DNA of 50,208 nt from an uncultured Candidatus Saccharibacteria bacterium (GTDB lineage: Bacteria; Patescibacteriota; Minisyncoccia; Phycocordibacterales; PALSA-1337). Numbering within the stretch: position 1 is the stretch's first letter; the number at the start of each line of letters is the position of its first letter. The stretch covers positions 1 through 50,208 of the forward strand of contig CAYIQG010000001.1 in the NCBI GenBank assembly GCA_964365535.1. Reading direction: 5' to 3'. The notes below the pieces were generated by a model. It saw only the letters and a program-made list of their open reading frames with translations, did no database searches and was not told where the DNA came from. This document shows positions 5,265 through 43,780 of this stretch, one piece after another. A program made the translations under genes and the position numbers.

Positions 5265-5287
5265 TAACAGGTATTTTAAACTCTTTT

Positions 5288-7681: not shown

Positions 7682-7718
7682 TAAGCAAGTAAATGTAATT
7701 TCTTATTTTCCGCGCGAA

Positions 7719-7727
7719 TGCTATAAT
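7719..7727 (+). promoter_or_regulatory. Extended -10 promoter TGCTATAAT, 9 nt upstream of the ATG at 7737
   Basis: Duplicate of the 4708-4716 block. Confidence 0.45.
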
Positions 7728-7736
7728 ACCCTTGAA

Positions 7737-8081: not shown

Positions 8082-8103
8082 TTATTAATTTACAAATACA
8101 AAA

Positions 8104-11412: not shown

Positions 11413-11521
11413 AAAATCAAAGTTCAAATTATTTCCTTTTCCACTCCAAGACATTTGGAATGGTTCTGCTAGAAGTTTAGCATAGTTGCTGTAATCTGTC
11501 AAGGAGGTGGATTTTCTTATT

Positions 11522-24540: not shown

Positions 24541-25284
24541 ATGTACAACACTTTTATTTTCCTGCCTTTATATAATGGACTAGTTGGCATAATGGACATT
24601 TTACCATGGGTTGATGTTGGTTTGGCGGTAGTTATATTTACGATTATTGTTAAATTGGCGCTATTTCATCTCTCGAAGGCTTCTATTTTGACGCAGATTA
24701 AGATGAAAGAGGTTGAACCGGAAGCGAATAAAATAAAAGCGCAATACGCGAATGATAAACAAGCGCAAGCCTTGAAGGTTATGGAGCTTTATAAGACCAG
24801 GAATGTTAAGCCGTTTGCCGGTGTTTTACTTCTCTTTATTCAATTACCTATTTTATTGGCGCTTCTTTCTGTTTTTTATAAGATTATACCCACAATCAAT
24901 CCGGAATATCTTTATTCTTTTATTTCTGTTCCTATTGTAAAAACCCAATTTCTTGGACTTATCGATTTGACCAAACCGAGTTTTATTTTGGCTATATTTA
25001 CCGCGATTGCTCAATTTGTGCAACTTCACTATTCCCCAGCCATGAAACAGGCGAAGGTTGTGGCTGTGAATAATAAAATAGGTATTTCCCCATTGGATTT
25101 CGCGGCATCTATGAATAAACAAATGAAATATATGTTACCTATTTTGGCTTTTGCTTCCACATACTGGCTTATTCCCCTGCAATTTCCGCAGGCGGCCTCT
25201 ATTATCGCTCTCTATTGGTCGGTGAGCGCCCTATTCACTCTTGGTCAGGAATTGATAATACGCAAACGGTATTATTCTAAATAG
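24541..25284 (+). CDS. yidC: YidC/Oxa1-family membrane protein insertase (short type)
   Basis: Polytopic, with MKEVEPEANKIKAQYANDKQAQALKVMELYKTRNVKPFAG and LFIQLPILLAL, typical of short YidC proteins. Confidence 0.85.
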   Translation: MYNTFIFLPLYNGLVGIMDILPWVDVGLAVVIFTIIVKLALFHLSKASILTQIKMKEVEPEANKIKAQYANDKQAQALKVMELYKTRNVKPFAGVLLLFIQLPILLALLSVFYKIIPTINPEYLYSFISVPIVKTQFLGLIDLTKPSFILAIFTAIAQFVQLHYSPAMKQAKVVAVNNKIGISPLDFAASMNKQMKYMLPILAFASTYWLIPLQFPQAASIIALYWSVSALFTLGQELIIRKRYYSK

Positions 25285-26602
25285 ACGACACCAAATCAAG
25301 TGACCATAAGGAGAGGTCGTTTTTGTTCATGAAGAATAGGAAATCGTCATTGTTATCGAGTTGCAAATTGAATGTGTCTATCAGGGCATTGCCTTGATTC
25401 AGAAGGTCAGCCACCTGATGTACTTCGCCGGTATTCCCGTTCAAGAGCCAAATATTATCAATGAATGAAGCTTTGCCGAGATACCAATTATCAGGATATG
25501 TGCCACTTGGTATCTGTGAGGAAACGCCGCAATAGACTTGTTCTTTGAATTTGGAACTCCAAACGCATTTGTTCGCAAGCGTTCGAAATATGATATCAAT
25601 TGATTTTTGGCTTTTAATATCATATACGGTAGTTTCAATCTTATCGCTTGTGGAAATTGAGTCTGAATATATTACTTTCGTCGCATCCCTACTCACTTTC
25701 GTCGTAAGTCCCGGAATATTTCCCAGAATCTCGCTTATTGCGCCGGTTTTGACATTTATAAAATACAAATAACCGGAATAGTTGGCACTGGCTTTCGTGG
25801 TAATGGCGATTGTATTTTCTTCCGGCCATTCCGTGGTTAGCTGGGTGAATGGCAAATCAAATAATTGGACTTGCTTGGTGCCGTCAAAATTGGAAATATA
25901 GCCGATGGCGCGGTTATTTTCATTGCTTATAACTAGAATCTTATCTCTTTTTGGCGAAGAAGCTACCGCGATAATGTTTCCGGAGATTATCTTACCTTTC
26001 AATTCATAATCAGTTTCGGTTATTTGTGTGGTTAGGTTGGCTTGTACTGTTGTTTGTGTTGTCGTGCTTGATTTCGCGGCGGTTGTCGTCGCTACAACAG
26101 CGCGCTTCAATATATTAGTTATGACTGTTGTAATCCTATCTCCTCTATCGCTTAAATACTGGCCTATGAATGATGTATCGTTCTTGTTCCACCAACTATT
26201 ATATACTCGCGGTAATAATGTATTGGAAATCGTTGTAATATCGAGCGAATCTCCGCGCGCCTCATAAATATTTCCCCTACCCCTATCTATCCATCTAACG
26301 ACCGTGGTGCTAGCGGTCGTGCTTGCTCCATATCCACCTACAGGTGTTGAGCTCAAAAGGCGCAAGGCTGGTAATGGTACGATTTTGGGTATATTTATTG
26401 TAGTGGTCGCATTCCCCTGCCCCGTAATTGTTTTTGTAGTAGTTGAAACCGGCCGATTGAGCGGTACGAAACCAGTTGTTGGCGCTTGATTTGGTATATT
26501 CGGAGCTGTTGTTGGAACACGCAAGAACATATACCAATAAACACCGCCGGCGATGATGAGGATGATTACCATAACTATTACAATGTCAATAATTTTTTTC
26601 AC
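25277..26602 (-). CDS. Membrane-anchored extracytoplasmic protein with Thr-rich linkers (T4SS-like locus gene 11)
   Basis: GTG start overlaps the upstream stop by 1 nt. N-terminal TM IIDIVIVMVIILIIAGGVYWYMF, then a beta-rich body. No family recognised. Confidence 0.65.
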   Translation of the reverse strand: MKKIIDIVIVMVIILIIAGGVYWYMFLRVPTTAPNIPNQAPTTGFVPLNRPVSTTTKTITGQGNATTTINIPKIVPLPALRLLSSTPVGGYGASTTASTTVVRWIDRGRGNIYEARGDSLDITTISNTLLPRVYNSWWNKNDTSFIGQYLSDRGDRITTVITNILKRAVVATTTAAKSSTTTQTTVQANLTTQITETDYELKGKIISGNIIAVASSPKRDKILVISNENNRAIGYISNFDGTKQVQLFDLPFTQLTTEWPEENTIAITTKASANYSGYLYFINVKTGAISEILGNIPGLTTKVSRDATKVIYSDSISTSDKIETTVYDIKSQKSIDIIFRTLANKCVWSSKFKEQVYCGVSSQIPSGTYPDNWYLGKASFIDNIWLLNGNTGEVHQVADLLNQGNALIDTFNLQLDNNDDFLFFMNKNDLSLWSLDLVSSI

Positions 26603-27891
26603 TAAGGTTTAGTGTGAAATTTAGTGTTCTTTATATCTTGTTCTGCGATTTTCTTTTTTTCTTGTAATTGTTTTAGAAGTTCCGGATCGTAATTTGGCGT
26701 TGCGGTGTAATCATTAACTATTTTATTTATAGCTTTATATGAATCTTCTTGAGCTTTAGATAAGGCTTCCTGTTCTGTCATTAATGTTCCGTCGATCCTT
26801 TTGTATGTAGTTCCTCCCAATAAATTAACATTAAAATCAAGCAAATCTTGCTCACTTGCTTGATATACCAATGCTTGTTGCTTAGTAATTTCGATCACTG
26901 CTTTGGAGTAAAGGATATAGTTCGCTGATTGATTTCTTTGCTCCTCATTATTAAATAATTCAGGATTGTTTAGATAATACATTCTGGTAGTTTTTCCGAA
27001 ACTTTCCAATAAATTGTCACAATATTCAGGCCTTCCCGTTGGTTGGCATTTGCGAACTAATGAATCTGAAACACCCTTAATAGTTTGAAAACCGATATCC
27101 CCTGTAACTTTGTCCCTCGCGGCAATTTTTTGTGCTCTCTGGGCACACAGGTCGTACATTTCAGGATCATCAGCCCATTTTAACACATCTTTGCATATAT
27201 CATCTAAACTCAAGATTGAGTCAAATACACCTACACTAGGGTATTTACTCATAATCTCATCCTCGATGTCTTGTATATCTTCGTCGAAACCGGCAATCAG
27301 TTCCTGATCCCAAATAATATTTGATTTTGCGCTTGCTATATCAGCATCAAACTGCGCCGCTTCCTTATTCAACTGGTCAAATAAAGCTGTTGGCGACTGC
27401 TTCATCTTATTTATCTTATCTTGTACATCTTTTGGTATTGTGATACTCGCGGGAATCGCCACCAATTTCGGATTGACGGTTTTTAAGATAAGAAAAGCCG
27501 CGAGGACCATTAATAGTCCGTATATAGCATTCTTGAATTTTTCCAAGCCGGCCTTACTCTGTTGCCAAGAATCCGTGGTCATATATAAAAATCCACCATA
27601 AACCATCATGAATACCGCCGCCACGGCGGAAAGGGCTATAAGGAGATTGAAGGCGTAACTGAAGAAACTGCCAAGATCGATATTTTTCACTTGCCCATTA
27701 TCACAGACTTGATTGGACCCTGGAGTAGGAATACACGGTAATGGCTCAAGTAAAGTGTATGTTTTTCCTGCATTTCCCTGCGCTTGGGTGTGAGGAATCG
27801 CGCCGGAAATACTTAAAAGAGAAAATAGCAAAATAACAAATACCAAGATGACCAATACTTGTCTATTTTTTTGTTGGATTTTATATGCCAT
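26602..27891 (-). CDS. T4SS-pilin-like membrane protein with long coiled C-terminal extension (locus gene 10)
   Basis: Signal peptide, then YTLLEPLPCIP...C... followed by two hydrophobic helices (FNLLIALSAVAAVFMMVYGGFLYM and IYGLLMVLAAFLILKTV). This resembles the T4SS_pilin/VirB2-TrbC-like arrangement. Confidence 0.5.
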   Translation of the reverse strand: MAYKIQQKNRQVLVILVFVILLFSLLSISGAIPHTQAQGNAGKTYTLLEPLPCIPTPGSNQVCDNGQVKNIDLGSFFSYAFNLLIALSAVAAVFMMVYGGFLYMTTDSWQQSKAGLEKFKNAIYGLLMVLAAFLILKTVNPKLVAIPASITIPKDVQDKINKMKQSPTALFDQLNKEAAQFDADIASAKSNIIWDQELIAGFDEDIQDIEDEIMSKYPSVGVFDSILSLDDICKDVLKWADDPEMYDLCAQRAQKIAARDKVTGDIGFQTIKGVSDSLVRKCQPTGRPEYCDNLLESFGKTTRMYYLNNPELFNNEEQRNQSANYILYSKAVIEITKQQALVYQASEQDLLDFNVNLLGGTTYKRIDGTLMTEQEALSKAQEDSYKAINKIVNDYTATPNYDPELLKQLQEKKKIAEQDIKNTKFHTKP

Positions 27892-28921
27892 TATAATTAT
27901 TTAACGAACTGGTAGCGGTTTTCGAACTATTCGCCGAGAATACTGCCGTAAAGCCGTTCTGCGCGCCTTGTAAAATCTCATTGGTATTTCTGATTTGCAA
28001 TTGAATATTAGAAGAACCAGCGGTACCTTCCGGAGCGCGCAGAACAATAGATTGACTGGCTAATAAAGCCATTTGTTCAATGGAGTTTACGAGCCACGAG
28101 AAAGAAAGGTCACCGACGCTATCCGAAGGCTTATTGAAACCATAAGGAACAGCTAATACTGACAGTTCCCTACTTTTACCAAGACTAACGCCGTTGCCAA
28201 TAGCTTTATTATACATTGGTCCGTATAGCGGGTCGTTATTGTAGAATGAAATATAAGGGCTTTGCGCTTGTAAGAGAATGACTTTCTCGGCTTGAGCGCT
28301 GCCATCTCGAGTGGTCGCGCGAACATTGAGCACTCTTTGTCGTGGAATAATATCATCTTGCCATGAGAAAACTTGCTTACCATAGCCGCCTTGGTCCTGG
28401 ACAACCTTGGAATCTTTTGTCCATTGATATATCAGGGTTTGCGGAGCATATTCTTTTCCGGAAGAATCGGCGATATGAGGTATAGCAATCACTCGATAAA
28501 TATTTTGATATGAAAGAGGTATTTTCCCCAAGAAAAATGGTGGAACATACCCTTCATTCTCCACGATAATATCAATATTACCGGAACCGATATCTATGCT
28601 TGATTTGAGCTCTCTTCCATTAGGAATGCCGGCGATTATTTCCACATTCAATTTCTTGCCAAGAGCGGGAGCTTGCACTTGAATAGAGGTAATACCCGCG
28701 CCTTTTTGATATAGAGAACCATTCAATGTCCAGATAATATTGGCTGAATTCAAATCAACGCTATAGCTTTCGGCGGTGACGATTATTTGTTGTCCTGGAA
28801 CTGGATTTTCAGTGGAGAGCCTCAAATCTATTTCTTTCAGAGCGGAAGACGGCATGCCTTGGGCATTAGCCATAAATGTAAAAATTAAAAAGCAAAATGT
28901 AAAAGTTACGAAAGCTTTCAT
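27881..28921 (-). CDS. Secreted beta-rich protein (locus gene 9)
   Basis: The ATG at 28921 gives the signal peptide MKAFVTFTFCFLIFTFMANAQG. It overlaps the downstream gene by 11 nt. No family recognised. Confidence 0.65.
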   Translation of the reverse strand: MKAFVTFTFCFLIFTFMANAQGMPSSALKEIDLRLSTENPVPGQQIIVTAESYSVDLNSANIIWTLNGSLYQKGAGITSIQVQAPALGKKLNVEIIAGIPNGRELKSSIDIGSGNIDIIVENEGYVPPFFLGKIPLSYQNIYRVIAIPHIADSSGKEYAPQTLIYQWTKDSKVVQDQGGYGKQVFSWQDDIIPRQRVLNVRATTRDGSAQAEKVILLQAQSPYISFYNNDPLYGPMYNKAIGNGVSLGKSRELSVLAVPYGFNKPSDSVGDLSFSWLVNSIEQMALLASQSIVLRAPEGTAGSSNIQLQIRNTNEILQGAQNGFTAVFSANSSKTATSSLNNYNGI

Positions 28922-29208
28922 TGATGCTATTTTATCAATTTTGTGGAAAACTTGCGAGGGGATATTAACTCTGTATAATGTGGGCATGATAATAAGTATA
29001 CGACCAATGATTAGGGGGTGGTTCTTGAAACCCCAAGCGATTTCTGGAATTATGCAAAGTATCGGAGAAATCTTCCTCGGTTCACTTTTTGTTGGACCGA
29101 TCTTCTCCCATAACTTTGAAGTGGAGTCGACGATTTTAGGTTTCTTTGCAATAATATTATCATGGTCTGCTTGTATATTATTAGCAAAGGAGTAATAATA
29201 ACATTATA

Positions 29209-29331
29209 ATGGGTAATAATATTTATAATGCAATAAACATGATTTATATTCTCGGAGCCTTGCTTACTATTGGTTTTATATTACTTGGCATTCTAGCCAA
29301 GGTGAGTGATAATAAAAAAGACAACAAATAA
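29209..29331 (+). CDS. Possible 40-aa single-TM peptide on the opposite strand inside the locus gap
   Basis: Hand translation gives MGNNIYNAINMIYILGALLTIGFILLGILAKVSDNKKDNK, with GGAG 16 nt upstream. It may be spurious. Confidence 0.25.
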   Translation: MGNNIYNAINMIYILGALLTIGFILLGILAKVSDNKKDNK

Positions 29332-29332
29332 A

Positions 29333-29779
29333 CTATTTATTTGATTGCAATCCCCCGCTAGGAGCGCGAACACCGCCTTGATTCAAAGGTATTTGTTGTT
29401 GGCGCGGTGGGTTCACGCCGTTTTGCACCAAGCTACTTCCGGTTTTTTTGCCTCCAATACCGGGAACTGAAATGCCGGTTTTATCTTCCGCGCGTACCAT
29501 GACTATTACCGCTATCATACCAGCTAGAATCAATGGGAATTCTTGAACAATAGGTATCATTTCGGCTACCATTGAAATCAATGATGTTGCCAATCTGCGA
29601 GCATTTAATAATCCACAGCCAACTTTCCAAAGATATATGCTGGCGCAAATCCAGAATATTGGTCCGACAATATCGCCGACAAAAGGTATTAAACTAAATA
29701 GGTCAGCTAAGGCGGCAAGCGCGACCCAAAATACTATTCCGGCAGTTCCTATTCGATATTTAGGCTTTATCTCTTCCAT
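29333..29779 (-). CDS. Small polytopic membrane protein with Gly/Pro/Gln-rich tail (locus gene 8)
   Basis: 3-4 hydrophobic helices (GIVFWVALAALADLFSLIPFVGDIVGPIFWICASIYLW...). It lies 6 nt downstream of the VirB4-like gene. Confidence 0.65.
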   Translation of the reverse strand: MEEIKPKYRIGTAGIVFWVALAALADLFSLIPFVGDIVGPIFWICASIYLWKVGCGLLNARRLATSLISMVAEMIPIVQEFPLILAGMIAVIVMVRAEDKTGISVPGIGGKKTGSSLVQNGVNPPRQQQIPLNQGGVRAPSGGLQSNK

Positions 29780-29785
29780 AAATAA

Positions 29786-31600
29786 CTATTGTCCCGCGTC
29801 CTCCAATTGTTTCTTTGCTTCCTTGATCGCCACAATCTGCTGGGGATTCGTGGTAATAATCTGGTCTTCAGTGTAAGAGCTGACGATTTTTATGGCGACA
29901 TGCTTCAAGCCGACGAAAAATATGCCTTCGCCGACATCAGATTCGAGTAGTAAATATTTTTCTTCATCCGTCAAATTGAAAGTCTTTTGAACATAATCAA
30001 TAACGCTCGGCGACTGTTTCAGCAGAATCTGTATAGAAGAGTTCGTTACAATCGGCATGCCGTATGGAGACTTCAAGAAATCATCAACATCCTGGGTAAT
30101 AGTCGCGAGCCCGAGGAAATATTTTCGTCCTCTTTTCGCCAAACTGAACAGGAACGAGGCCGTATCTTCGCTTTTCATCATCCACCACGCTTCATCAATA
30201 ACTAGAAGGCGCTTTCTCAAATTCTTACGGATAGCATTCCAAATATAGTGAGTGATGAGATACATTGCCACCGGTTTGAGCTCATCTTCCATATCGCGGA
30301 GTGAAAAGACGACAAACTTCTTATTGATGTCAATGTTTGAAGGGCGATTGATGAAGCCGGACCATGTGCCCTTCGTGTATTTCGACAATCTTTCCACCAG
30401 AGAGTCCGCGCCTTCCATTCCAGCCAAGACAAGTTCAAAATCGGATAAAAGCGGCGGTTCAACATTGGCGAAGTTCGATTCGGCGGTAATATCTTTCAGG
30501 GCGTAAGTTTCCGTTATGGCTCGATCAATGATGGCGTCTTCTTCTTGAGACAAACCGCCTAACATTATTCGGAATAATCCAACGAGATTTATGATATTGG
30601 AACGAAGAACATCGGTGGCGCTTTCATCCTCGTGCGCTATCGGCAAATCGAAAGGATTCACATGGTGTTCTGAATTCAATGAAATATTGAAATATTTTCC
30701 TCCTGTCGCCTCGGCCATATACTCATATTCTTTTTCCGGGTCAATAACTATGACTTCCGTGTCGAACATCAGAGTGCGCAATATTTCCAGCTTGGTGCAA
30801 TAAGATTTTCCGGAACCGGCGACGGCGAAAGTGACGGAATTGTAATTTTCTAGAAGGAAACGGTCGAATAGGACTAGCGAAGAATTGTGCCTATTTATGC
30901 CGTACAGTATCCCCTTATCAGAAGTTAAGTCGAATGAAACGAATGGAAATAGGCTGGAAAGCGGCGATGAATTGAGTTTCGAATGAACGGCCAATTGGTC
31001 ATCCGCTATAGGCAAAACGCTCTTGAATCCTTGTTCTTGCTGGAATAGAGCTGGTTTGACATAGACCAGTTTTGATTCGAGAATAGATTTCACTTCTGAT
31101 TCAAGTTTGTCTAGTTCGCCTTCCGAATCGGCAAATAATGTAATATAGACGCCTACATCGAATAGTCTTTCTTGGGCTTGCATGAGTTGGTCGCGAAGAT
31201 TTTCTAAATCTTGATAAGCGGTATCGAGAGCCGGGTCGCGCACCAGCCCTTTTTCTTCTCTGCGAGAAATTTGGCTTTGTACTTCGGCGACTTTCTTTTG
31301 GAAATGGCGCAATATTTTCGCGGTATCGACTGGATGTATGAAAATCGAGACATTGAATACTTTGTCGAGGTTTATTATCGGCGCGAACCAGCTTTCTTGC
31401 AGGAATCTTGGATATGAAATCACGAATAATGTGCGACCGACCTTCTCCCCCAAATTCAATTCTTTCGGACTTATTTTGAGCGCCGAGGGAGCGATAATAT
31501 CTTTCAATTCCAAAACGCCGGCCTGGTATATTTCCTCGGGCATGATGGAAACGATTGGCGAAGGTTCCTTTTTCTTGAATAAATTGCTGAATATGTTCAT
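29786..31600 (-). CDS. VirB4/TrbE/CagE-like type IV secretion ATPase
   Basis: Walker A FAVAGSGKSY, Walker B LLVIDEAWWMM, GLATITQDVDDF. The ATG at 31600 overlaps the upstream stop (ATGA). The upstream extension to 31699 looks non-coding. Confidence 0.85.
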   Translation of the reverse strand: MNIFSNLFKKKEPSPIVSIMPEEIYQAGVLELKDIIAPSALKISPKELNLGEKVGRTLFVISYPRFLQESWFAPIINLDKVFNVSIFIHPVDTAKILRHFQKKVAEVQSQISRREEKGLVRDPALDTAYQDLENLRDQLMQAQERLFDVGVYITLFADSEGELDKLESEVKSILESKLVYVKPALFQQEQGFKSVLPIADDQLAVHSKLNSSPLSSLFPFVSFDLTSDKGILYGINRHNSSLVLFDRFLLENYNSVTFAVAGSGKSYCTKLEILRTLMFDTEVIVIDPEKEYEYMAEATGGKYFNISLNSEHHVNPFDLPIAHEDESATDVLRSNIINLVGLFRIMLGGLSQEEDAIIDRAITETYALKDITAESNFANVEPPLLSDFELVLAGMEGADSLVERLSKYTKGTWSGFINRPSNIDINKKFVVFSLRDMEDELKPVAMYLITHYIWNAIRKNLRKRLLVIDEAWWMMKSEDTASFLFSLAKRGRKYFLGLATITQDVDDFLKSPYGMPIVTNSSIQILLKQSPSVIDYVQKTFNLTDEEKYLLLESDVGEGIFFVGLKHVAIKIVSSYTEDQIITTNPQQIVAIKEAKKQLEDAGQ

Positions 31601-32235
31601 GTTATTTGTATCGGTTTCTCTGTCTCCCCAGGATTGAACAGCTTGTAGAATAATTCTACCACCTCCTCGGTTCCCAATTCCGCCGTGCGGACGCCACAAC
31701 GCACGAGTCCCTGCTCGACTACCGAGACCCGCTGTTCGAGTTGAGTCCTATATTCCTGGAATTGTTCATCCAAGGTAGGCGCTGGCGCGGCTCCTTTTCG
31801 TTTCGACAGGAATTTCGATATTGGGTTGTGGCTGGCGGTCATCATTGGCGGGTCGTAAGGGATGACGACGAAGAAGCTTTTTGTCATTATGTTCGTATTT
31901 TCCACGAAAGTTTTGACAAATTCTATATATTCACGCACTTGAATTTTCATCAGCTCGGTTATTTGTTCTTTGTAACGGCCTTCCAATAGGGCAATATATG
32001 GTCTAATATCTAACTTTTTTGATTGAATTACTATTTGTATCGAAAAATCCAATGAATTCAGGAAGTTTTGGAATTGCATCATAATAGCATTTTGTTCATC
32101 GGAAGATTTCAGGGCGAAATTTAAAGATGATGCCAAGACTACTGACCTCATACCGCCATTGCGCAAGACTATCACTCCATCGCGGATTTCTTGCACGGGC
32201 ACGAATTCTTGAGTTGTTTGGGATTTTGTCGCCAT
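31597..32235 (-). CDS. Stand-alone protein resembling the N-terminal (non-ATPase) domain of Gram-positive VirB4 homologs
   Basis: QEFVPVQEIRDGVIVLRNGGMRSVVLASSLNFALKSSDEQNAIMMQFQNFLNSLDFSIQIVIQS matches my memory of VirB4 N-domain starts in Firmicutes conjugation systems. It is translationally coupled to the ATPase. Confidence 0.5.
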   Translation of the reverse strand: MATKSQTTQEFVPVQEIRDGVIVLRNGGMRSVVLASSLNFALKSSDEQNAIMMQFQNFLNSLDFSIQIVIQSKKLDIRPYIALLEGRYKEQITELMKIQVREYIEFVKTFVENTNIMTKSFFVVIPYDPPMMTASHNPISKFLSKRKGAAPAPTLDEQFQEYRTQLEQRVSVVEQGLVRCGVRTAELGTEEVVELFYKLFNPGETEKPIQIT

Positions 32236-32237
32236 TT

Positions 32238-32675
32238 TTATTTCTGGTTCTTGTTGGAATAAACACTCTCTTTAATATCCAAACTCCACGCCAAATCTTT
32301 GAGCTTGCTGTCGGAAATCTTCGGAACCATGAGCGAGGCGTAACTTTTCGCGTCTTTGATTGCTCCCTCTGCCGTTTGCGGTTTTATATTTTCTTTTTTC
32401 TGCCAAATGAAGAGCTTACTGCCTCTATAATAATTGAACGCTGATTCGGCGATATTGACTAATGGAAAGTGATTATAGACTTTATAGAAAGCCAAAGCCA
32501 CGGAAATTGCTATTATTATCAGTATTGGTATGAATGACCAAAAGAGACTGCCGAGCATGACATAGACGACAAATGATAATCCTCCCCCGCCGGCCAGATA
32601 TATGAATTGCTTTAAGGTAAGGGGTCCGAAAATTTTATCTTCGACTTCAATGAATTGAGGTACTTGGTATCGCAT
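32238..32675 (-). CDS. PrgI-family (VirB3-like) membrane protein
   Basis: MRYQVPQFIEVEDKIFGPLTLKQFIYLAGGG followed by two TM helices, the characteristic PrgI-family opening. Confidence 0.65.
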   Translation of the reverse strand: MRYQVPQFIEVEDKIFGPLTLKQFIYLAGGGGLSFVVYVMLGSLFWSFIPILIIIAISVALAFYKVYNHFPLVNIAESAFNYYRGSKLFIWQKKENIKPQTAEGAIKDAKSYASLMVPKISDSKLKDLAWSLDIKESVYSNKNQK

Positions 32676-32699
32676 TTGTAGTATTATACCGTATTTTTT

Positions 32700-33380
32700 C
32701 TAGAATGGCTCACGATACGGGTCTTTCTCATAACTTTTCTTTGGGATTGGGGGTGTCGGCGTGATAGGTGTGATTGGTTTTTCAGGTTGAGGCGGAACTT
32801 GTAGCTTTTGAATTACTGGCAGTGGAACAGTTTGTGTCTTTTCGATTTGAGTTGGTTTACTCGGACTAGTTTCTATTGGTAGATTGGGCGGTACTACCGG
32901 TGTTATTTTCTTTTCGGCTGTTGCCGGCGGACTTTCCAGTAAATTATCTGCTTGAATGTTTTCTACGCCTACCATTCCCAAGCCATTTCCATTCTTGCTA
33001 TTATCACCCTCTTTCAATATTCTGAAATCCCCAATGCGTTCGAGATCGGAGATTTCAGTTTTATTCTCTTGAGTATCTGATTGCATCTGTGATTTGATTG
33101 CATTAAATATTTCTTTATTAACTTCGGTAGCGATCTCGTCTGCCAATGATCGATTGATTTCTAGATACTTAATTATGTCATTAATAAAAGAAGAAGATTT
33201 CGCTTGACCTTTCAGTACCTCCCTAACTTGAGCATCAAGTTCACCGATTTGATCTATATGAAGACTAAACATTTCTCCAATCTTTTGGCATGAAGCAAAG
33301 ATTTTCGGGGAATCAGAAATATCTTTATAGATACCGAATGAATTCATTTGTGTATTATTCATTTGCATAATATTTACCAA
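32700..33380 (-). CDS. Hypothetical protein with Pro-rich C-terminal half (locus gene 4)
   Basis: Helical N-terminal half, then TPVVPPNLPIETSPSKPTQ...PPQPEKPITPITPTPPIPKK. It overlaps the upstream gene by 7 nt. Confidence 0.6.
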   Translation of the reverse strand: MVNIMQMNNTQMNSFGIYKDISDSPKIFASCQKIGEMFSLHIDQIGELDAQVREVLKGQAKSSSFINDIIKYLEINRSLADEIATEVNKEIFNAIKSQMQSDTQENKTEISDLERIGDFRILKEGDNSKNGNGLGMVGVENIQADNLLESPPATAEKKITPVVPPNLPIETSPSKPTQIEKTQTVPLPVIQKLQVPPQPEKPITPITPTPPIPKKSYEKDPYREPF

Positions 33381-35392
33381 ATACCCCTACTGCGCTGATC
33401 GCTAATCCAGCCAAATGTTGGAACTCTTACTTGCGCTCCATTTACACTAAGACCATGCAATCTAATTACGGCGTCTGCTATGTTTGTCTTTAGTTGTTCA
33501 GAGTTTGAATGATCACCGATTTCCTTCAGTTGTGAATTCGTGTAATTTTTAATAACTGCCTCACCCGTTAACAGAGCCTGATCTATGCCTAGCAACTCTT
33601 TCCCATCATAATTCTTCAGCATATCTTTTACCATACCTTCGTCATCATTTCTAATTGCTGTTTCAAATATTTCTTTTCTTTTTGCTTCGATAGCATCCTT
33701 ATCTTCCTTTGAGAAATCATCCGATTTTTTAATTGCTTCAAAGTCCCCCTTTTTAAGATAACGAATTACATTCGGATCTTTCAAGTCATTAGGCTTAATA
33801 GAAAGTTTTTCTTTTTCACTCATTTTACCAATAACATCTTTCATTGTACTACCTCCAACGACAGGAGGTTGTCCGGCTTTTAGATTGGTGAGCAAAGTGC
33901 CAAATTCTTTGCGCCGTTCAATTTCTTTGTCCTTGCTTGCAATATCCTTGTTTATAGTAACCTGATCTTTCCATGATCGACTACCGCCATATTTAGCTTG
34001 CGCGGCCTTACCGACTGTTGCTGCTCTTATTCCGCGTGCGATTTCACTATTTCCAACACCAACAAGAGCTCCTGCAATTTTTCCAACACGGCTATCGAAT
34101 TTCTGATTTCCTGCCCATTTTTCAACTGAAGAGCCGAATCTACCTGCGGTATTTCTTCCGGCCCAGCCGGCGCCAGCTTGCAATCTCCCAACTGTCGCCC
34201 ATCGACTGAATTTCTCTATTGAGCCCTGTAAGCTATCTATTGCTTTAATAGATAGTCCAGAAACTTTTATCGCGACAAAGATTGGAATATTGAGCATAAC
34301 AATGATAATAGCGAATCCAACAAATAGGTTGATGAAGTCACCAAGACCACCGGAAACGACACCGCCATTTACAACATTTCCGGTAAGTGTATTGAGTTTG
34401 CTGTCGGCAATTATCTTTATCGCCACATACATAAACAGTAGATAAACAGGCAGAAAAATGAGGTTGGCTTTCAATTGGTCTGTCCATTGTTTTGCAAAAT
34501 CTTTGAGATTTGGAATCACCCATGAAGCTATCCATACTGGGGAAAATCCGAGCAAGAATATCAATACTGCAATACGCCATATACACGCTATCACTACCGC
34601 TAGAAAACTTAATATGGTAATTATTAGCACTATAATACCGGCAAAACCTGTAAGTATGATTTGGGCGGTTGTTGAAAGCCCAGTGCTCGATCCCCCAGTA
34701 TTAGAAACTGTTGAATTTAATCCTCTGTTATTCCACCATTGATTAATTTTGAGTGCCCCCATGAATATTCCTGATATGCCACCATCGCCATTTTCCAATG
34801 AAGCAGCAACCATCTCATTTACCGAATTCATTGGACCCATATCCACTGTCTGGTTTGGGGCAATAGCATTATAAAATTGAAGTGAAACTATATTTGACGC
34901 GTCTATGAGGACGCTTGTCATAAAAAAGCTAAAATTAATCAATATCCCCATAATAACCATGTTTCTAATCATGGTTCCATAGCTAGGAGGTTTTAAGCTT
35001 AATATCATCTGAATAGCCGCCCATAATATAAAGAATATTAAGAGCATGCTTGATAAATCACGGATTGTCCCCCAAACTGTGTATATGACTGGAGTAGCGC
35101 CTATGAATGACTTCAAATGGGTTGTTAAGTTCATTGATACATTCAGTAAGATACCAACGAGACTTAAGAGCCAGCCAAGCATCTGAAGAGCTGCATTGAC
35201 TATATAGGATAATATGGTATTTACAAAACTCATCAAGTCAAGATCAAATCCCAGAAAACTTGTTATTCCTCCCCCGCTAGCTTTTTGCGCGTGCGCTATC
35301 TTCCCTCCCATCCCCACCCACACCAAAACCGCCAGGCAAAATATCGGCAGAATTTTCTTTATTATCTCTTTTATTTGCTTGATTCGTTTCAT
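33374..35392 (-). CDS. VirB6/TrbL-like polytopic membrane protein with about 270-aa hydrophilic C-terminal domain
   Basis: Signal peptide plus about 7-8 hydrophobic helices over the first 400 aa, placed next to the PrgI-like and VirB4-like genes. The family assignment rests on topology and context. Confidence 0.5.
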   Translation of the reverse strand: MKRIKQIKEIIKKILPIFCLAVLVWVGMGGKIAHAQKASGGGITSFLGFDLDLMSFVNTILSYIVNAALQMLGWLLSLVGILLNVSMNLTTHLKSFIGATPVIYTVWGTIRDLSSMLLIFFILWAAIQMILSLKPPSYGTMIRNMVIMGILINFSFFMTSVLIDASNIVSLQFYNAIAPNQTVDMGPMNSVNEMVAASLENGDGGISGIFMGALKINQWWNNRGLNSTVSNTGGSSTGLSTTAQIILTGFAGIIVLIITILSFLAVVIACIWRIAVLIFLLGFSPVWIASWVIPNLKDFAKQWTDQLKANLIFLPVYLLFMYVAIKIIADSKLNTLTGNVVNGGVVSGGLGDFINLFVGFAIIIVMLNIPIFVAIKVSGLSIKAIDSLQGSIEKFSRWATVGRLQAGAGWAGRNTAGRFGSSVEKWAGNQKFDSRVGKIAGALVGVGNSEIARGIRAATVGKAAQAKYGGSRSWKDQVTINKDIASKDKEIERRKEFGTLLTNLKAGQPPVVGGSTMKDVIGKMSEKEKLSIKPNDLKDPNVIRYLKKGDFEAIKKSDDFSKEDKDAIEAKRKEIFETAIRNDDEGMVKDMLKNYDGKELLGIDQALLTGEAVIKNYTNSQLKEIGDHSNSEQLKTNIADAVIRLHGLSVNGAQVRVPTFGWISDQRSRGIW

Positions 35393-35471
35393 TTATTTTT
35401 ATTCGCTTTTATCCCTACTTTGTCTTGCCTTATCCAATACCCACTCCCCACCTCTTTTAACTCTCGGATGT

Positions 35472-37226
35472 TTATAAAATGCTGTTTGGAAACATCTCTG
35501 ACCTTTGCAAATACTCCGTGGCTTCTTTATCGAGTGGCGTGAGCTGTCCCGGCTGGTCTGGTGGCAACCCCTGCAGAGTTTCCAGGTCATTTTGGGCATT
35601 CATAATGTCAATTTCGTTTGCTAGCGTGGAAGTTGCTATTGTAGGAAGAGTCGCGGAGAGTATTTTGGGTATTCTTTGTGCGCTGTCGATTGTTGTCATA
35701 TGCGAAATAGCCGTAGAGTATGTTTTGAGCGCCTTTTTCATAGCCTCGATTGTTGTTGCGTTGTTAGTTTCGTCAAGAAGTTTCCGTATTGTCCCCAAAC
35801 GATTTTTAGCATCCACCAGCTTTATTTGATATGTATTTTCGAGAGGAACGATCTTAATAGCGATGGCCATATCTATAGCAGCCATCTGATTTCTAGCGAA
35901 AATAATCTGCGGCATAGACAGGCTAAGTTGAGTGGTAGAGCCGACCTTGTCATTGAAATTAGATCTGGCGATTAAATATTTGTTCTTGACCACGCTTATG
36001 GAATCCATAGCTTGCTGGCGCAACTGTGCGTATCGCGAAGCAGTCGTATAATAGCCATTGATGGAATCGGTAAGCGTTGTTCGCGAATCCGCGAGCTGGT
36101 CTCTAACTGATTGCTGTGATAATTGATAGGCGACTCCGCCCAAATTTCCTTTTCCAGGACTGCTAGCGCCTTTCAATCCGCCCGATAATACTTGCGATAC
36201 CAATTGAGCGAATAAAGCATTAACGATTTGATTGAAAGAACTTGCCAAGTTCAATCTGTCTTGAGGAATACCCAATGATTTGTTGATAGAGCCGCCAATG
36301 ACCGAGCCAGGCGTTTGGGTTTCGCAATTTTTGTATGTAACCATGCCAGTTTTTTTGTCCACGGCTTTTTTAGTAGTCAAGGTACCGCCAGAATAAATAT
36401 CTTTCCCGGTTACAACTCTCTGATTGCCGCTTTTATTCAAAGCGGAATAATCCGTGCCCATTACTTCTTGGTCAAGGCTTCTCTGCGCGGACACACTATC
36501 CGCGCTAATGTCGGTGCATTTTTGCCATGATAAGAATCCGCTACCTTGAATGAGGTCATTGCTATAACGATTTTGCGTTACGCCGATTCTCTGTAAAAGG
36601 TCGCTTTGCGCGGTCAAATAAGCTCCCACCGGATTATTCCCTGTTTCAGTGGTCATACTGATGAAAGCCGGCCAACCGCCTTGTTTGAAATCGCCATTCA
36701 TAAAGCCGTTTATGCTTCTGCCGTTGATTGTCGAATTACCGACATTCTGGATTACCGAACTCAAAGTACAAGTATATCTCGGATATGGTTCCGCTTGTCC
36801 CAAAACCAGCGCTAGCCGTATATCAATATTAAAAGGCGAGCACAGTCCGGACAGGACGCCGGTATTTGCTATGAATGCCCCGGTAATCTGGTCTCCGACA
36901 TCCGTAAAAAATGCCCGAGGATTGCTAAGGAATGAAGGACTGCCCTGAAAACCGGTATTTATCCAATTGACCACGCTAGATGTTACCTGTTGGAGCATAA
37001 TGCTCGCTATATTGTAAGCTAATGTGTCTAGGACATAAGATTTTACTCTTTGTAGCGTTGTATCAACAGTTCTCATTATTGCGGTTGGGCTTGTTTCGCC
37101 GGCAACAACAACATATAAGGCATTAGCGGTTTTTGGCAATATTTGAGTGCCTAAAATTGTAACAAGCAGTGTCAGTGAAATTATATGTACCAAATGCCGC
37201 GATTTTGTTATTATTTTTTGGGTCAT
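35472..37226 (-). CDS. Large secreted protein (locus gene 2)
   Basis: The ATG at 37226 gives MTQKIITKSRHLVHIISLTLLVTILGTQILPKTANA. The ORF track begins at a TTG at 37250. No family recognised. Confidence 0.65.
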   Translation of the reverse strand: MTQKIITKSRHLVHIISLTLLVTILGTQILPKTANALYVVVAGETSPTAIMRTVDTTLQRVKSYVLDTLAYNIASIMLQQVTSSVVNWINTGFQGSPSFLSNPRAFFTDVGDQITGAFIANTGVLSGLCSPFNIDIRLALVLGQAEPYPRYTCTLSSVIQNVGNSTINGRSINGFMNGDFKQGGWPAFISMTTETGNNPVGAYLTAQSDLLQRIGVTQNRYSNDLIQGSGFLSWQKCTDISADSVSAQRSLDQEVMGTDYSALNKSGNQRVVTGKDIYSGGTLTTKKAVDKKTGMVTYKNCETQTPGSVIGGSINKSLGIPQDRLNLASSFNQIVNALFAQLVSQVLSGGLKGASSPGKGNLGGVAYQLSQQSVRDQLADSRTTLTDSINGYYTTASRYAQLRQQAMDSISVVKNKYLIARSNFNDKVGSTTQLSLSMPQIIFARNQMAAIDMAIAIKIVPLENTYQIKLVDAKNRLGTIRKLLDETNNATTIEAMKKALKTYSTAISHMTTIDSAQRIPKILSATLPTIATSTLANEIDIMNAQNDLETLQGLPPDQPGQLTPLDKEATEYLQRSEMFPNSIL

Positions 37227-37246
37227 ATATTGATAATATTTATTTA

Positions 37247-38089
37247 TCAAGAACTAAATATGATTTCATTTGAAGTGAAATAATTCTGAATGTTATCCAA
37301 TGCCGTCATAATATTTTGCAGGCCCGAGACATAAATGCCGACAGCCGCCAAACCTTGAGTAGGGTCTTTTTCAACATTTCGGAGGGATTTCGCGTTGTAT
37401 AGGGTGATACTTATACCATTCAATAAGTCTAGATGATACTGTGACGCGGATTTCGGCACTGGCAATACCCGTAATTTATTGACAATAGATTCATATTTGG
37501 CAATGATTGGGTCAATTTGCTCAAGTATGCTCATATCTCCTTGGTCGAATGCGTTATTGGCAATAATTGCCGCGTCTTCGACTGGAAGGTTTTTCATTAT
37601 TCCCATAAGATTTTTCCCGTATTCGGCAATTTGATTTTGATTGGAGTCAAGTACGATATAGATATCTTTCGCGAAATATATTGTCGGATTCGTCACATCA
37701 GCTATACGCCCAACAAATCTATTATTTATGGCGTTTATCACATCAGGATTTTCTTCAAGTCCAGCTTGTTTAGCCATCATATATTGGGCGAAATAGTCTC
37801 TGCTTATTTGGTCAGTGAGTGTAAGCGGCGTATCTATGATATTTTCTGTTTTCTTCGCCGATAATTTAACGCTGTTGGTCGCGGAGCCGAAGAATTGCTT
37901 TTGCCAATCCGTTGAAGCGGTTGTAGTTGAAACACGGTCTGTATTTATTGAAGTTGTTACGGCTATTCTCCCTTCATCTTGCATTGGCGCGACTTTTTGC
38001 CTGTATGAATACCATACCATCGTCCCGACGACTACAACACACGCGATGAAAATAATTACCGTCTGTTTACGCGGGTATAATTTAGCCAT
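37247..38089 (-). CDS. Single-pass membrane protein (locus gene 1)
   Basis: N-terminal anchor VIIFIACVVVVGTMVWYSY and a helical extracytoplasmic domain. No family recognised. Confidence 0.65.
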   Translation of the reverse strand: MAKLYPRKQTVIIFIACVVVVGTMVWYSYRQKVAPMQDEGRIAVTTSINTDRVSTTTASTDWQKQFFGSATNSVKLSAKKTENIIDTPLTLTDQISRDYFAQYMMAKQAGLEENPDVINAINNRFVGRIADVTNPTIYFAKDIYIVLDSNQNQIAEYGKNLMGIMKNLPVEDAAIIANNAFDQGDMSILEQIDPIIAKYESIVNKLRVLPVPKSASQYHLDLLNGISITLYNAKSLRNVEKDPTQGLAAVGIYVSGLQNIMTALDNIQNYFTSNEIIFSS

Positions 38090-41205: not shown

Positions 41206-42255
41206 ATGAAATCATTATCTCACGACAAAAGTAAATATTCGACCATTACCAAACGCGCCTTTTCTTGGCCTCTTACCTTTGTAATCGCTTTAGCCGCGCT
41301 TGTGCTCTATTCCGGGACCGCTTATGCCGGTCTCTTTTCTTTTGTCGGGTCGCTATTCGGAGGTTCTTCCGCCGTCGCCCAAACAACGACCATTACTCCG
41401 GACCAAAATCTTCAGACAATCGCCTTGCTTCAGGCGCCAGCGAATATAAATCCCAATCAAAATGTTATCGCCGATGCCGTACCTATTAGCAACAATGAAA
41501 CACTCGTGGCTGACTTGGCAGCAGCCAATATTATTGATGAAAGTAATTATAATACGCAAATCAGCACCTATGTTGTTCGGGGAGGCGATACTATTTCAGG
41601 CGTTTCAAGAATGTTCAATGTTTCCGTGAATACTGTTTTGTGGGCGAATAATCTTAATGGTAAATCAATTCTTAAAGTTGGACAGACTCTTACTATTTTG
41701 CCCGTGACCGGTATTTCTTATACTATAAAGAAAGGTGATACTATCAAGAGTATTGCCAATAAATACAACGCCGATGTGACCGATATATTGAATTATAACG
41801 ATTTAATTTTATCGATGCCGCTTTCCGTCGGTAATTCGATAATTATCCCTGATGTGGAATTGTCATCCTCGGAGATTACGCGATTAACCGTACTTTCTAC
41901 GAATCGCGTTATTAGCGGCTTCATAAGGCCAATTGTCGGCGGGCGTAAGACTCAAGGGATACACGGCAATAATGGCGTTGACCTTGCCGCTCCGATTGGG
42001 ACTCCCATTGTCGCTTCGGCCAGTGGCACGGTGATTATCAGCCGTGCCGGCGGATGGAATGGCGGTTATGGCGGTTATGTCGTCATTTCCCATCCGAATG
42101 GCACGCAGACTCTATACGCGCATAATTCCAAGAATCTCGTAACTGCCGGCGAAAAAGTCATGCAAGGAGAAACTATCGCGCTTGTGGGTTCAACGGGCAA
42201 TTCAACCGGCCCCCATATTCATTTTGAAATTCGCGGCGCGGTCAATCCGTTTTAA
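41206..42255 (+). CDS. Secreted LysM-domain M23 metallopeptidase
   Basis: N-terminal TM/signal, two LysM repeats (YVVRGGDTISGVSRMF..., YTIKKGDTIKSIANKY...), and M23 motifs HGNNGVDLAAP and GSTGNSTGPHIHFEIR. Confidence 0.9.
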   Translation: MKSLSHDKSKYSTITKRAFSWPLTFVIALAALVLYSGTAYAGLFSFVGSLFGGSSAVAQTTTITPDQNLQTIALLQAPANINPNQNVIADAVPISNNETLVADLAAANIIDESNYNTQISTYVVRGGDTISGVSRMFNVSVNTVLWANNLNGKSILKVGQTLTILPVTGISYTIKKGDTIKSIANKYNADVTDILNYNDLILSMPLSVGNSIIIPDVELSSSEITRLTVLSTNRVISGFIRPIVGGRKTQGIHGNNGVDLAAPIGTPIVASASGTVIISRAGGWNGGYGGYVVISHPNGTQTLYAHNSKNLVTAGEKVMQGETIALVGSTGNSTGPHIHFEIRGAVNPF

Positions 42256-42256
42256 G

Positions 42257-43780
42257 CTATTCTTTGGTCTTCCGCCGATATTGCAGCGCCTCCAGAATAT
42301 ATTCTTTTTCTATAATGTCCGAACCCGCAAGGTCAGCGATTGTTTGCGCCACTTTCATGATTCTATGGAATGATCTGCCGGATAATTCCAGTTTTTCCGC
42401 GGAAAGCAAAAGAATATTGCGGGCTTCGTCGGTTAGCGTGACGCATTTCTCGAGGTCTTCCGCGCCCATTTCACTGTTATAGTGTTTTGTTATATGGTAT
42501 TTTCCAAATCTCGCGGTTTGCCGCAATCGCGCGGATACGATTCTTCGGCGGATGGTCTCCGAAGACTCGCCGCTCGAAGTTTTGGCGGCCAATTTCTTAT
42601 AATCAACTTTATTAACATCAACCCAAATGTCTATGCGGTCAATGATTGGCCCGGAAATTTTTCGCTGATAATTTTTAAATACTATTTCCGGACAAACGCA
42701 TCCATTATTTTTGCCTTTTCCGCAAGGACAAGGATTTGTCGAGGCTATCAAGATACATTGCGCGGGGAAAGTAATAACGCCGCGAGCGCGCGAAATCGTT
42801 ATGACGCGGTCTTCGAGAGGTTGGCGCAGGGCTTCGATGACATCTCTGTCAAATTCAGGGAATTCATCCATAAAGAGCACTCCCCTATGAGCCAATGTTA
42901 TTTCTCCAGGCCGGGGGAATGCCCCGCCGCCGACAATCGAAGGATATGACGCGGTATGGTGCGGAGAGCGGAATGGCGGATAAACGATGAGACCCTCTTT
43001 CAATGTTCGAGCCGCCGAATGAATGCCGGTAACCTCGATTGATTGCTCATAAGTTAATGGCGGCAAAATCGAGCAAAAACTATGCGCCAACATTGTCTTT
43101 CCCGTTCCCGGCGGACCGCTCAAGAGAATATTATGCGCGCCGCCGCCGGCTATCTCGAGTCCTCTTTTCGCGGTTTCATTGCCACGAATTATATTCATAT
43201 CCGTGAAGTTTGGCGGTTCGAAATTCAGGTTCTCGATTCTCTGAATAGGTTTCATTTCAATTTCACCCGATAAGTGTTTTATTGTTTGCGCTAGAGATGA
43301 GACCGCGTAGGCGGTTATCCCTTGAGCAAGCGATGCCTCGCGGATATTATCTATTGGCACGAATGCTTCCATAAAACCATGCTCTCTTGCTTGGCAAAGA
43401 ATAGGCAATAATCCGCTTACCTTACTCACATTCCCTTCAAGGGACAATTCTCCCAAAAATATTTTCTTTTCCGAATTGAAATGAATATCCTCCGCCGCTT
43501 TCAAATATGTGACGGCCATTGCCAAGTCGAAAGACGGTCCCTCTTTGCGAACATCGGCCGGCGCTAAAGATATAATAACTTTTTGGTTTTTCTGTTTGGG
43601 CGATTGATACCCGGTATTCTTCACGGCCGCGGAAACGCGGTCTTTGGCTTCTTCTACCGCCCTATCGCCGAGACCGACAATAGAGAAAGCATTCAGGCCA
43701 TTGGAAATATCAACTTCGACCGTGACGGTTTCGGATTTAAGCCCAATAAGTTGCGCGCTGTATGATTTTGCCAGTCCCAC
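42257..43780 (-). CDS. comM: YifB/ComM-family Mg-chelatase-like AAA+ ATPase
   Basis: Lon-like N-domain, Walker A LLSGPPGTGKTM, Walker B VLFMDEFPEF, a Cys cluster STNPCPCGKGKNNGCVCP, and a C-terminal ChlI-like tail. Confidence 0.9.
   Translation of the reverse strand: MGLAKSYSAQLIGLKSETVTVEVDISNGLNAFSIVGLGDRAVEEAKDRVSAAVKNTGYQSPKQKNQKVIISLAPADVRKEGPSFDLAMAVTYLKAAEDIHFNSEKKIFLGELSLEGNVSKVSGLLPILCQAREHGFMEAFVPIDNIREASLAQGITAYAVSSLAQTIKHLSGEIEMKPIQRIENLNFEPPNFTDMNIIRGNETAKRGLEIAGGGAHNILLSGPPGTGKTMLAHSFCSILPPLTYEQSIEVTGIHSAARTLKEGLIVYPPFRSPHHTASYPSIVGGGAFPRPGEITLAHRGVLFMDEFPEFDRDVIEALRQPLEDRVITISRARGVITFPAQCILIASTNPCPCGKGKNNGCVCPEIVFKNYQRKISGPIIDRIDIWVDVNKVDYKKLAAKTSSGESSETIRRRIVSARLRQTARFGKYHITKHYNSEMGAEDLEKCVTLTDEARNILLLSAEKLELSGRSFHRIMKVAQTIADLAGSDIIEKEYILEALQYRRKTKE

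Follow-up and report, generated by a model that had tools for sequence, protein, structure and literature searches.

Eleven consecutive genes at positions 25277 to 38089 of the DNA analyzed here make up a real type IV secretion system (T4SS), a typical Paceibacteria example of a kind known from the literature as near-universal and non-conjugative in the Patescibacteria, which are ultra-small and depend on hosts. This DNA, called the window below, is a stretch of 50,208 nucleotides from contig CAYIQG010000001.1 (GenBank assembly GCA_964365535.1), and the eleven genes are numbered g01 to g11 from the rsmA side to the yidC side of the cluster (Table 1). We consider it very likely that the locus is a vertically inherited, origin-proximal T4SS of the Patescibacteria that serves a host-dependent lifestyle and not conjugation. 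The locus comes without a relaxase or coupling protein and keeps its place beside dnaA in many species, so that it most likely supports life on a host, by taking up host material or by delivering effectors. What we propose for this lifestyle draws on literature on other classes, and the putative pilus mechanism on established T4SS biology.

The source is a 53.6-kb metagenome contig from the 0.1-μm filter fraction of a groundwater sample (Hainich H43; ENA ERZ1292629), an origin that fits a reduced-genome organism of ultra-small size. Patescibacteria represent a very large share of the uncultured bacteria, and a central question is by what means they obtain building blocks from the host. The T4SS is the foremost candidate for this task and is essential in the sole genetically tractable species. 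The locus holds nothing categorically new, but is a clean and complete Paceibacteria example. Its additions are modest: a VirB4 that is far better conserved than DnaA, an extended single pilin, a TrbJ/VirB5-like signature in the g02 family, and the exclusion of a VirB8 fold for the predicted structure of g01.

Core proteins, pilin and chromosomal setting

In the preliminary description of this DNA, made from the sequence alone, T4SS hallmarks had been assigned to four products: a VirB4-like ATPase (g07), a PrgI/VirB3-like protein (g05), a protein with a T4SS-pilin-like N-terminus (g10) and a polytopic VirB6-like protein (g03). For g07, the assignment was borne out by both Walker motifs (Walker A, VAGSGKSY; Walker B, LLVIDEAWW) and by matches to the VirB4 family and to the VirB4 of Thermoanaerobacter in the PDB (4AG5, 2.6e-37). 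The protein also matched NCBIfam conju_CD1110 (6.5e-113, 378.5 bits with a cutoff of 325, model positions 161 to 733), P-loop_TraG (3.3e-26) and AAA_10 in Pfam, and TrwK in the PDB (6e-6). The adjacent g06, for which no family had been recognized, proved to be a TrsD / VirB4 N-domain protein by NCBIfam, with matches to VirB4_plasma (positions 99 to 233, 4.8e-12), TrsD (8e-7) and conju_CD1110 (positions 2 to 116). Because g06 covers the beginning of the CD1110 model and g07 only the part from position 161 onward, VirB4 is, by these matches, split into a TrsD-like N-domain protein and an ATPase. Transmembrane (TM) segments and signal peptides of the locus proteins were judged by hydropathy scan, and neither was found in g04 or g06; the earlier statement that all seven products outside the four hallmark proteins carry a signal peptide or TM anchor therefore held only for the others. 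A Pfam PrgI match above cutoff (2.6e-10, 41.1 bits, cutoff 27), together with two TM helices in the scan, supported the PrgI/VirB3 assignment of g05. As shown by these family matches, the predicted cytoplasmic-membrane core is of the Gram-positive (MPF-FATA) type.

The pilin-like N-terminus of g10 consists of a signal peptide, an LLEPLP motif and two hydrophobic helices (pilin region at aa ~40 to 140), and its assignment was upheld by a match to Pfam T4SS_pilin above cutoff (5.8e-8, 33.1 bits, cutoff 26.6, aa 80 to 138). NCBIfam Mbov_0395 (pilin-like) was matched at 3.2e-5. Across 57 sequences the core was conserved and the tail variable, with an extension of 150 to 300 aa in most family members. 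In g10 itself, this C-terminal extension (aa 141 to 429) is ~290 aa long, poorly conserved and Cys-containing, and a few family members consist of the pilin core only. The window has one copy of the pilin gene, as do 64 of 68 relatives, in contrast to the arrays of 2 to 11 short pilins reported for Saccharimonadia and Microgenomatia.

The cluster lies among core chromosomal genes, as had been described from yidC on one side and rsmA on the other. The first flank carries yidC, rnpA, dnaA and dnaN, and the second rsmA, uvrD/pcrA, a LysM-M23 hydrolase gene, comM and the gene for polynucleotide phosphorylase (PNPase). The GC content of the locus (0.38 to 0.45) matches that of the remainder of the window. 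To place the locus among its relatives, one genome per species was scanned, and the best 80 loci by VirB4 similarity were fetched. VirB4 relatives were found in more than 593 species-level genomes. The best 80 were all metagenome-assembled genomes of Patescibacteria, labelled either Paceibacteria or Parcubacteria (Taylor-, Zambryski- and Campbellbacteria) or uncultured bacteria of the candidate phyla radiation, with VirB4 identities of 78 to 92%. All eleven genes and the flanking genes recurred across these loci. Furthermore, the order uvrD-rsmA-g01...g11-yidC-rnpA-dnaA-dnaN held in the 14 Paceibacteria loci that were mapped by position, with the exceptions that a single gene differed in orientation in two cases and that a few partner genes escaped detection by tblastn. 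The same gene order in 14 loci and the presence of the genes across 80 species indicate inherited chromosomal equipment and not a mobile element.

Median identities to the window proteins over the related loci were 82% for VirB4, 64% for TrsD (g06, in 80 loci), 61% for UvrD, 58% for DnaA, 57% for PrgI (g05, found in 79 loci), 53% for DnaN and 36% for the g10 pilin, with 28 to 34% for g01, g02, g03, g04, g09 and g11. VirB4 was better conserved than DnaA in all 46 species in which both were seen; the choice of loci by VirB4 similarity inflates VirB4 identity relative to the other genes, although the gap is still large. TrsD likewise stood above DnaA. Such conservation of VirB4, above that of DnaA, speaks for an important function that is under strong purifying selection. 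Together, these comparisons identify the locus, judged from sequence, as a chromosomal system that is inherited vertically and strongly selected, and not as an integrated element.

Pfam scans of the 11 cluster ORFs (open reading frames) and 29 others, which are the 40 main ORFs of the window and include several without any family match, revealed no relaxase, VirD4-type coupling protein (type IV coupling protein, T4CP), VirB11, VirB7/9/10 or integrase. This agrees with the absences listed in the preliminary description and, together with the fixed chromosomal order in relatives, with its view that the locus is not part of a conjugative element. Direct repeats flanking the cluster were not found beyond chance-like 14- to 28-mers. 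An integrative and conjugative element (ICE) was thus considered and rejected, with neither flanking repeats nor mobility genes within 50 kb.

We regard it as very improbable that the locus is a conjugation machine, i.e., a mating-pair-formation module, domesticated or active, that exports DNA to other cells with a coupling protein and relaxase encoded elsewhere. The families nearest to its VirB4 are conjugative ones from ICEs of Firmicutes and Mollicutes (conju_CD1110, VirB4_plasma), and the protein exceeds the curated cutoff of CD1110, from a C. difficile conjugative transposon (CTn). The pilin and the polytopic g03 resemble Mbov_0395 and Mbov_0396 of the Mycoplasma ICE proteins Mbov_0395-0397, the separate TrsD-type N-domain is shared with the Trs system of pGO1, and PrgI with the Prg system of pCF10. 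Moreover, in the survey by Quinonero-Coronel et al. 2025 (Microb Genom, PMC12102498), most Patescibacteria genomes encode VirD4 homologues, as a rule a long way from virB4. However, unlike these MPF-FATA systems, the locus lies off mobile elements and has no relaxase, T4CP, integrase, in-cluster PrgK/TraG-type hydrolase, VirB8-like protein or surface adhesin, and its pilin passes the Pfam T4SS_pilin threshold. A fixed position by dnaA in 14 mapped loci of different species also speaks against conjugation. In the survey, relaxases are almost absent (109 in 3,035 genomes), and in Southlakia epibionticum the T4CP is non-essential while the T4SS genes are essential (PMC12102498).

The VirB6-like protein and the g02 family

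The VirB6-like hallmark was upheld in part. The product of g03 is polytopic and some of its orthologues match Pfam TrbL (7 of 60, best 5.4e-5), but g03 of the window itself has no Pfam match, and it is the weakest of the four assignments. The protein matched the NCBIfam Mbov_0396 ICE TM protein at 0.004. When family alignments were compared by hhalign, the g03 family matched Bacteroides TraJ (36.5%, E 3.7e-4) around the invariant R273, S284 and P285, and no match was obtained with an alignment of seven proteobacterial TrbL sequences (0.1%). A PDB profile search gave nothing relevant. Topology (~7 TM segments) and gene position fit VirB6, and g03 is probably the VirB6 equivalent.

The g02 family is large, with 5,644 representatives (50%-identity clusters) at E ≤ 0.001 and 2,693 at 1e-30. 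Among 100 homologues, 29 columns were invariant, including 4 Cys. Many members open, straight after the signal peptide, with the sequence AQW-(A/V)-V-x-D-(A/P)-G-N-I-V-Q-S-T-I-T-A. This N-terminal segment of g02 relatives was matched above cutoff by Pfam DUF4141 (Bacteroides TraI) in 2 of 7 proteins tested, and 1 of 43 orthologues matched NCBIfam TrbJ (2.3e-5). A tblastn search of 7.3 Gb of plasmids with one family member returned three matches, two of which were a trbJ and a Bacteroides DUF4141 gene, each located just upstream of a VirB6 gene (trbL or traJ). The same signature was present in the ten plasmid TrbJ proteins collected, and the g02 family aligned to TrbJ in hhalign (72.5%, E 3e-5) over 28 columns only. 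A loose form of the motif occurred in 54 of 254 family members, whereas 1.25 million background residues contained it 3 times. The copy in the window, g02 itself, has a degenerate and largely deleted motif.

The g02 gene lies directly upstream of the VirB6-like g03, in the arrangement of virB5-virB6, trbJ-(K)-trbL and Bacteroides traI-traJ. The VirB5 family fold is an elongated three-helix bundle, as in TraC of pKM101. The AlphaFold2 (AF2) model of g02 had a predicted local distance difference test (pLDDT) score of >90 for helices 373 to 520 and low values for aa 40 to 230, despite the 29 invariant columns. Foldseek against the PDB gave generic coiled-coil and helical-bundle matches only (best E 0.03) and no T4SS protein, and a PDB profile search returned nothing. 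A phmmer search of the PDB with Dyella TrbJ yielded no VirB5 structure for comparison. Taken with the gene order, the signature suggests that g02 is a probable VirB5/TrbJ-related component. A VirB5/TrbJ component is not reported for the Patescibacteria clade in the accessible text of the 2025 survey (PMC12102498).

Compared to the Gram-negative VirB and Trb systems (virB2-virB6; trbC-trbJ-trbL), the locus shares a VirB2-like pilin and, in the g02 family, the TrbJ signature AQW-V-x-D-x-x-N-x-V-Q. In contrast to them, it is without an outer-membrane core (VirB7/9/10), VirB8, VirB11 and VirD4, and g02, at twice the length of TrbJ, carries an additional conserved domain with Cys residues and resembles TrbJ over ~28 residues only. 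The g02 family, for the body of which there is no Pfam model, would be worth structural and genetic study with regard to the building of VirB2-type pili in single-membrane cells.

Published precedent and the role of the system

In S. epibionticum, T4SS genes at the chromosome start are essential for epibiotic growth, and they include pilin genes and no recognizable coupling or relaxase proteins (Wang et al. 2023, Cell, PMC10633639). The 2025 survey finds VirB4 in 2,417 of 3,035 genomes, with almost all of these VirB4s forming one Patescibacteria clade nested in MPF-FATA, and TrsD, PrgI/VirB3, VirB6 and VirB2-like proteins as neighbors of virB4; for Paceibacteria it gives a dnaA/dnaN/rnpA/ksgA neighborhood, and it proposes import of DNA or other macromolecules from hosts (PMC12102498). 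A 2025 FEMS review draws the same picture (PMC12857230). In a cultured Microgenomatia strain with host-RNA uptake, tubular structures run from parasite to host and are possibly T4SS pili (bioRxiv 10.64898/2026.06.21.733656).

The locus resembles this Patescibacteria-clade T4SS (PMC12102498; SEML1_0006-0019 of S. epibionticum) in its VirB4, adjacent TrsD, PrgI/VirB3, VirB6-like protein and VirB2-like pilin, in having no nearby relaxase or T4CP, in being of monoderm type with no VirB7/9/10, and in lying beside dnaA, dnaN, rnpA and ksgA. It differs by a lineage-specific 345-nt gap and by six more conserved genes (g01, g02, g04, g08, g09 and g11), to which the text of the papers assigns no function. 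The preliminary description had proposed a minimal Gram-positive-style VirB4 machine for contact-dependent exchange or import; this agrees with the three papers (PMC10633639, PMC12102498, PMC12857230) and is not new, as it is already the published hypothesis for the Patescibacteria T4SS.

In such a system, a VirB4 hexamer docked on VirB3/VirB6 would pull the pilin out of the membrane, and a short pilus or conduit would be built through the cell wall toward the host cell, carrying macromolecules between the two cells. The VirB5-like protein may sit at the pilus tip, the clade-specific ectodomain proteins would cross the wall or reshape it, and the hydrolase with M23 and LysM domains encoded 3 kb away may open it in the manner of VirB1. 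This hydrolase matched Pfam Peptidase_M23 (1e-30) and LysM (6e-20), and its gene lies beside uvrD in several related loci. It may be considered a candidate VirB1-type partner; M23/LysM-containing VirB1 homologues are associated with virB4 in Paceibacteria according to the survey (PMC12102498).

The machine could also be dedicated to DNA uptake (competence), like Helicobacter ComB or archaeal Ced, bringing in environmental or host DNA as nucleotides or for recombination. These organisms are without nucleotide synthesis, g07 is weakly similar to the DNA-import ATPase CedB (1e-7), and ComM, UvrD/PcrA, RuvABC and PolA are encoded in the same 50 kb. T4SS loci of the class ABY1 co-localize with comF, recG and radA according to the survey (PMC12102498). 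The CedB match, however, is to a generic P-loop region and far under the family cutoff, and the adjacent DNA-metabolism genes are ordinary origin-proximal housekeeping genes. Competence in S. epibionticum needs ComEC, and comEC is dispensable there whereas the T4SS is essential (PMC12857230). We therefore hold a DNA-uptake machine to be improbable.

We find it quite improbable that the locus encodes an adhesion or attachment organelle only, a VirB4-built pilus or surface structure that holds the host while nothing is translocated. The large variable ectodomain of the pilin and the fast-evolving surface proteins g01, g02, g09 and g11 (28 to 34% median identity) are as expected of host-recognition molecules, and there is no coupling protein by which substrates would be recruited. 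Against this, type IV pili for adhesion are already encoded in these genomes, as indicated by the PilB-type ATPase of the window (Table 1), and the extreme conservation of VirB4, TrsD and PrgI suggests an energized process, although it would be compatible with pilus assembly alone.

A more specific reading, which we think possible but on the whole unlikely, is that the locus encodes a complete pilus-building stalk in a single-membrane bacterium. VirB5-like g02, VirB6-like g03, VirB2-like g10 and wall-spanning g01, g09 and g11 would then form a host-penetrating conduit that imports macromolecules of the host, e.g., RNA, and the large variable g10 ectodomain may decorate the filament. If true, a VirB5 equivalent would be described for the first time from a monoderm T4SS, and the tubular structures observed in a cultured relative by cryo-electron microscopy (cryo-EM) would have a concrete list of parts.

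Several points weigh against the host-dependent T4SS that we favor, besides the selection of loci by VirB4 similarity noted above. The VirB6 assignment of g03 is weak for the window protein itself. The TrbJ/VirB5 likeness covers ~28 residues after the signal peptide in ~21% of the g02 family and is mostly gone in the window copy, and Foldseek gave no VirB5-like structure for g02 in the PDB. The 290-aa C-terminal extension of g10 may be incompatible with a canonical VirB2 filament. Since most genomes in the 2025 survey have VirD4 homologues, a VirD4-type coupling protein is probably encoded elsewhere in the genome; there may also be a relaxase of unrecognized type, as only 50 kb of the genome is visible. 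Finally, the essentiality data come from Saccharimonadia, a different class from Paceibacteria.

Partner proteins, gene layout and neighboring genes

Six of the eleven genes (g01, g02, g04, g08, g09 and g11) have no known fold or family. All-against-all hhalign revealed no paralogy among the eleven families. Foldseek comparison to the PDB, which the preliminary description had suggested, was carried out for g01 and g02 and gave no specific fold for either. The AF2 model of g01 (mean pLDDT 84, >90 over aa 90 to 275) comprises a single TM helix and then eight extramembrane helices, with no fold match in the PDB (best E 0.3) and none by profile. A weak SpoIIIAH match prompted us to consider g01 as the missing VirB8, a protein defined by an N-terminal TM helix and an NTF2-like α+β periplasmic domain; of these, g01 has the TM helix only. 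Because the ectodomain is confidently modeled as all-alpha and no VirB8, PrgL or TraM match was found in the PDB, g01 is predicted not to have the NTF2/VirB8 fold, and this candidate was rejected. The VirB8 equivalent is mostly undetected in Patescibacteria, as stated in the survey (PMC12102498). A protein similar to g01 occurs in 52 of the 80 related loci and is encoded by the first cluster gene in 12 of the 14 mapped ones. Four distant orthologues (P0142, P0143, P0161 and P0196) carry one or two TSP3 calcium-binding repeats after the TM helix, which have been lost from g01 of the window and are consistent with an extracellular location of this region in the orthologues.

The hydropathy scan found no hydrophobic segment in g04, which matched no Pfam or NCBIfam family (nor did its orthologues in Pfam) and was detected in 34 of the 80 loci at ~30% identity. 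Similarly, g08 matched no Pfam or NCBIfam family and its orthologues none in Pfam; an ORF of its size sits between VirB4 and g09 in most relatives. g09 has a hydrophobic N-terminus and a counterpart in 76 of the 80 loci; across 62 sequences, ten columns were invariant (W, G, Y, P, A). Its PDB profile search gave sub-threshold immunoglobulin-like matches only (0.08), and no Pfam family was found in 4 orthologues. g11, present in 56 of the 80 loci, has nine invariant columns, 2 Cys included, in 51 sequences. TolB matches in its PDB profile search were sub-threshold (E 0.13 to 0.15) and one orthologue weakly matched DPPIV_N, so that the ectodomain is possibly a beta-propeller.

Table 1. Features of the T4SS locus and other genes of the window
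Feature	Position	Strand	Description
g01	37247..38089	-	ORF; bitopic, TM helix aa 10-28, all-alpha ectodomain (predicted); lineage-specific T4SS partner
g02	35472..37250	-	592 aa, bitopic or secreted; Cys-containing N-terminal domain and long C-terminal helical bundle
g03	33374..35392	-	polytopic membrane protein, ~7 TM segments in aa 1-375 and ~300-aa hydrophilic C-terminal extension
g04	32700..33380	-	soluble; helical N-terminal half, proline-rich C-terminal tail
g05	32238..32675	-	PrgI/VirB3 family, two TM helices
g06	31597..32235	-	TrsD-like free-standing VirB4 N-terminal domain, soluble
g07	29786..31600	-	VirB4-type ATPase without N-domain
g08	29333..29779	-	small membrane protein, at least 2 TM segments, Gly/Pro/Gln-rich tail
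Non-coding break	28988..29332	not assigned	345 nt, inside cluster
g09	27881..28987	-	secreted; beta-rich look from sequence; signal peptide probably from Met23
g10	26602..27891	-	VirB2-like T4SS pilin fused to ~290-aa C-terminal extension
g11	25277..26602	-	bitopic: TM helix, Thr-rich linker, possibly beta-propeller-like ectodomain
LysM and peptidase M23 cell-wall hydrolase	41206..42255	+	~3 kb from cluster
dnaA	22455..23801		flanking gene
ComM	42257..43780	-	flanking gene
PNPase	45366..47540	-	flanking gene
PilB-type ATPase	11507..13216	+	T2SSE ATPase with MshEN domain
Four ORFs upstream of PilB	4782..9153	+	no Pfam family, one of 811 aa
AAA_14/DUF4143 ATPase	9319..10497	-	in lowest-GC stretch

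The eleven minus-strand genes had been described with the same boundaries, and the ORF list agreed exactly. The junctions given there were also recovered, namely the ATGA at 31597-31600 (g06 stop and g07 ATG) and overlaps of 1 nt at 26602, 11 nt at 27881-27891 and 7 nt at 33374-33380. The 345-nt break, described as the lone interruption, is real, but a second gap of 79 nt (35393-35471) had been overlooked. Apart from these two gaps, the other junctions measure 2 to 24 nt, and that of g01 and g02 is a 4-nt overlap or a 20-nt gap, depending on the choice of start codon. The end of rsmA and the first gene are 32 nt apart, so that the transcription unit may begin further upstream.

The 345-nt break had no counterpart in the 80 related loci (blastn, tblastn), where g08 fills the interval between VirB4 and g09, and no Rfam match. 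Its folding z-scores of -1.1 (minus strand) and -2.3 (plus strand) indicated no significant RNA structure. It is probably a lineage-specific insertion and may carry a promoter for g09 to g11. Two small plus-strand ORFs in the break, at 28986-29195 (69 aa) and 29209-29331 (40 aa), would encode hydrophobic peptides; they had no homologues in the 80 related loci and may be spurious.

In about half of the relatives, a secreted protein of 330 to 430 aa with a C-terminal Cys-rich motif (TYCTCS or MPCTCSG), absent from the window, is encoded on either strand between rsmA and g01 (L002:2351-3346, L005:2085-3131, L057:2444-3502 and ~20 others). The PNPase and ComM genes lie within 4 to 9 kb of the T4SS, and in a cultured relative both PNPase and VirB4 have been linked to the use of host RNA as food (bioRxiv 10.64898/2026.06.21.733656). 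Further away in the window, the PilB-type ATPase is a type IV pilus motor, and the four ORFs upstream of it may form a pilus or envelope locus. Between them, the AAA_14/DUF4143 ATPase lies in the stretch with the lowest GC content of the window (0.346) and is possibly an acquired gene.

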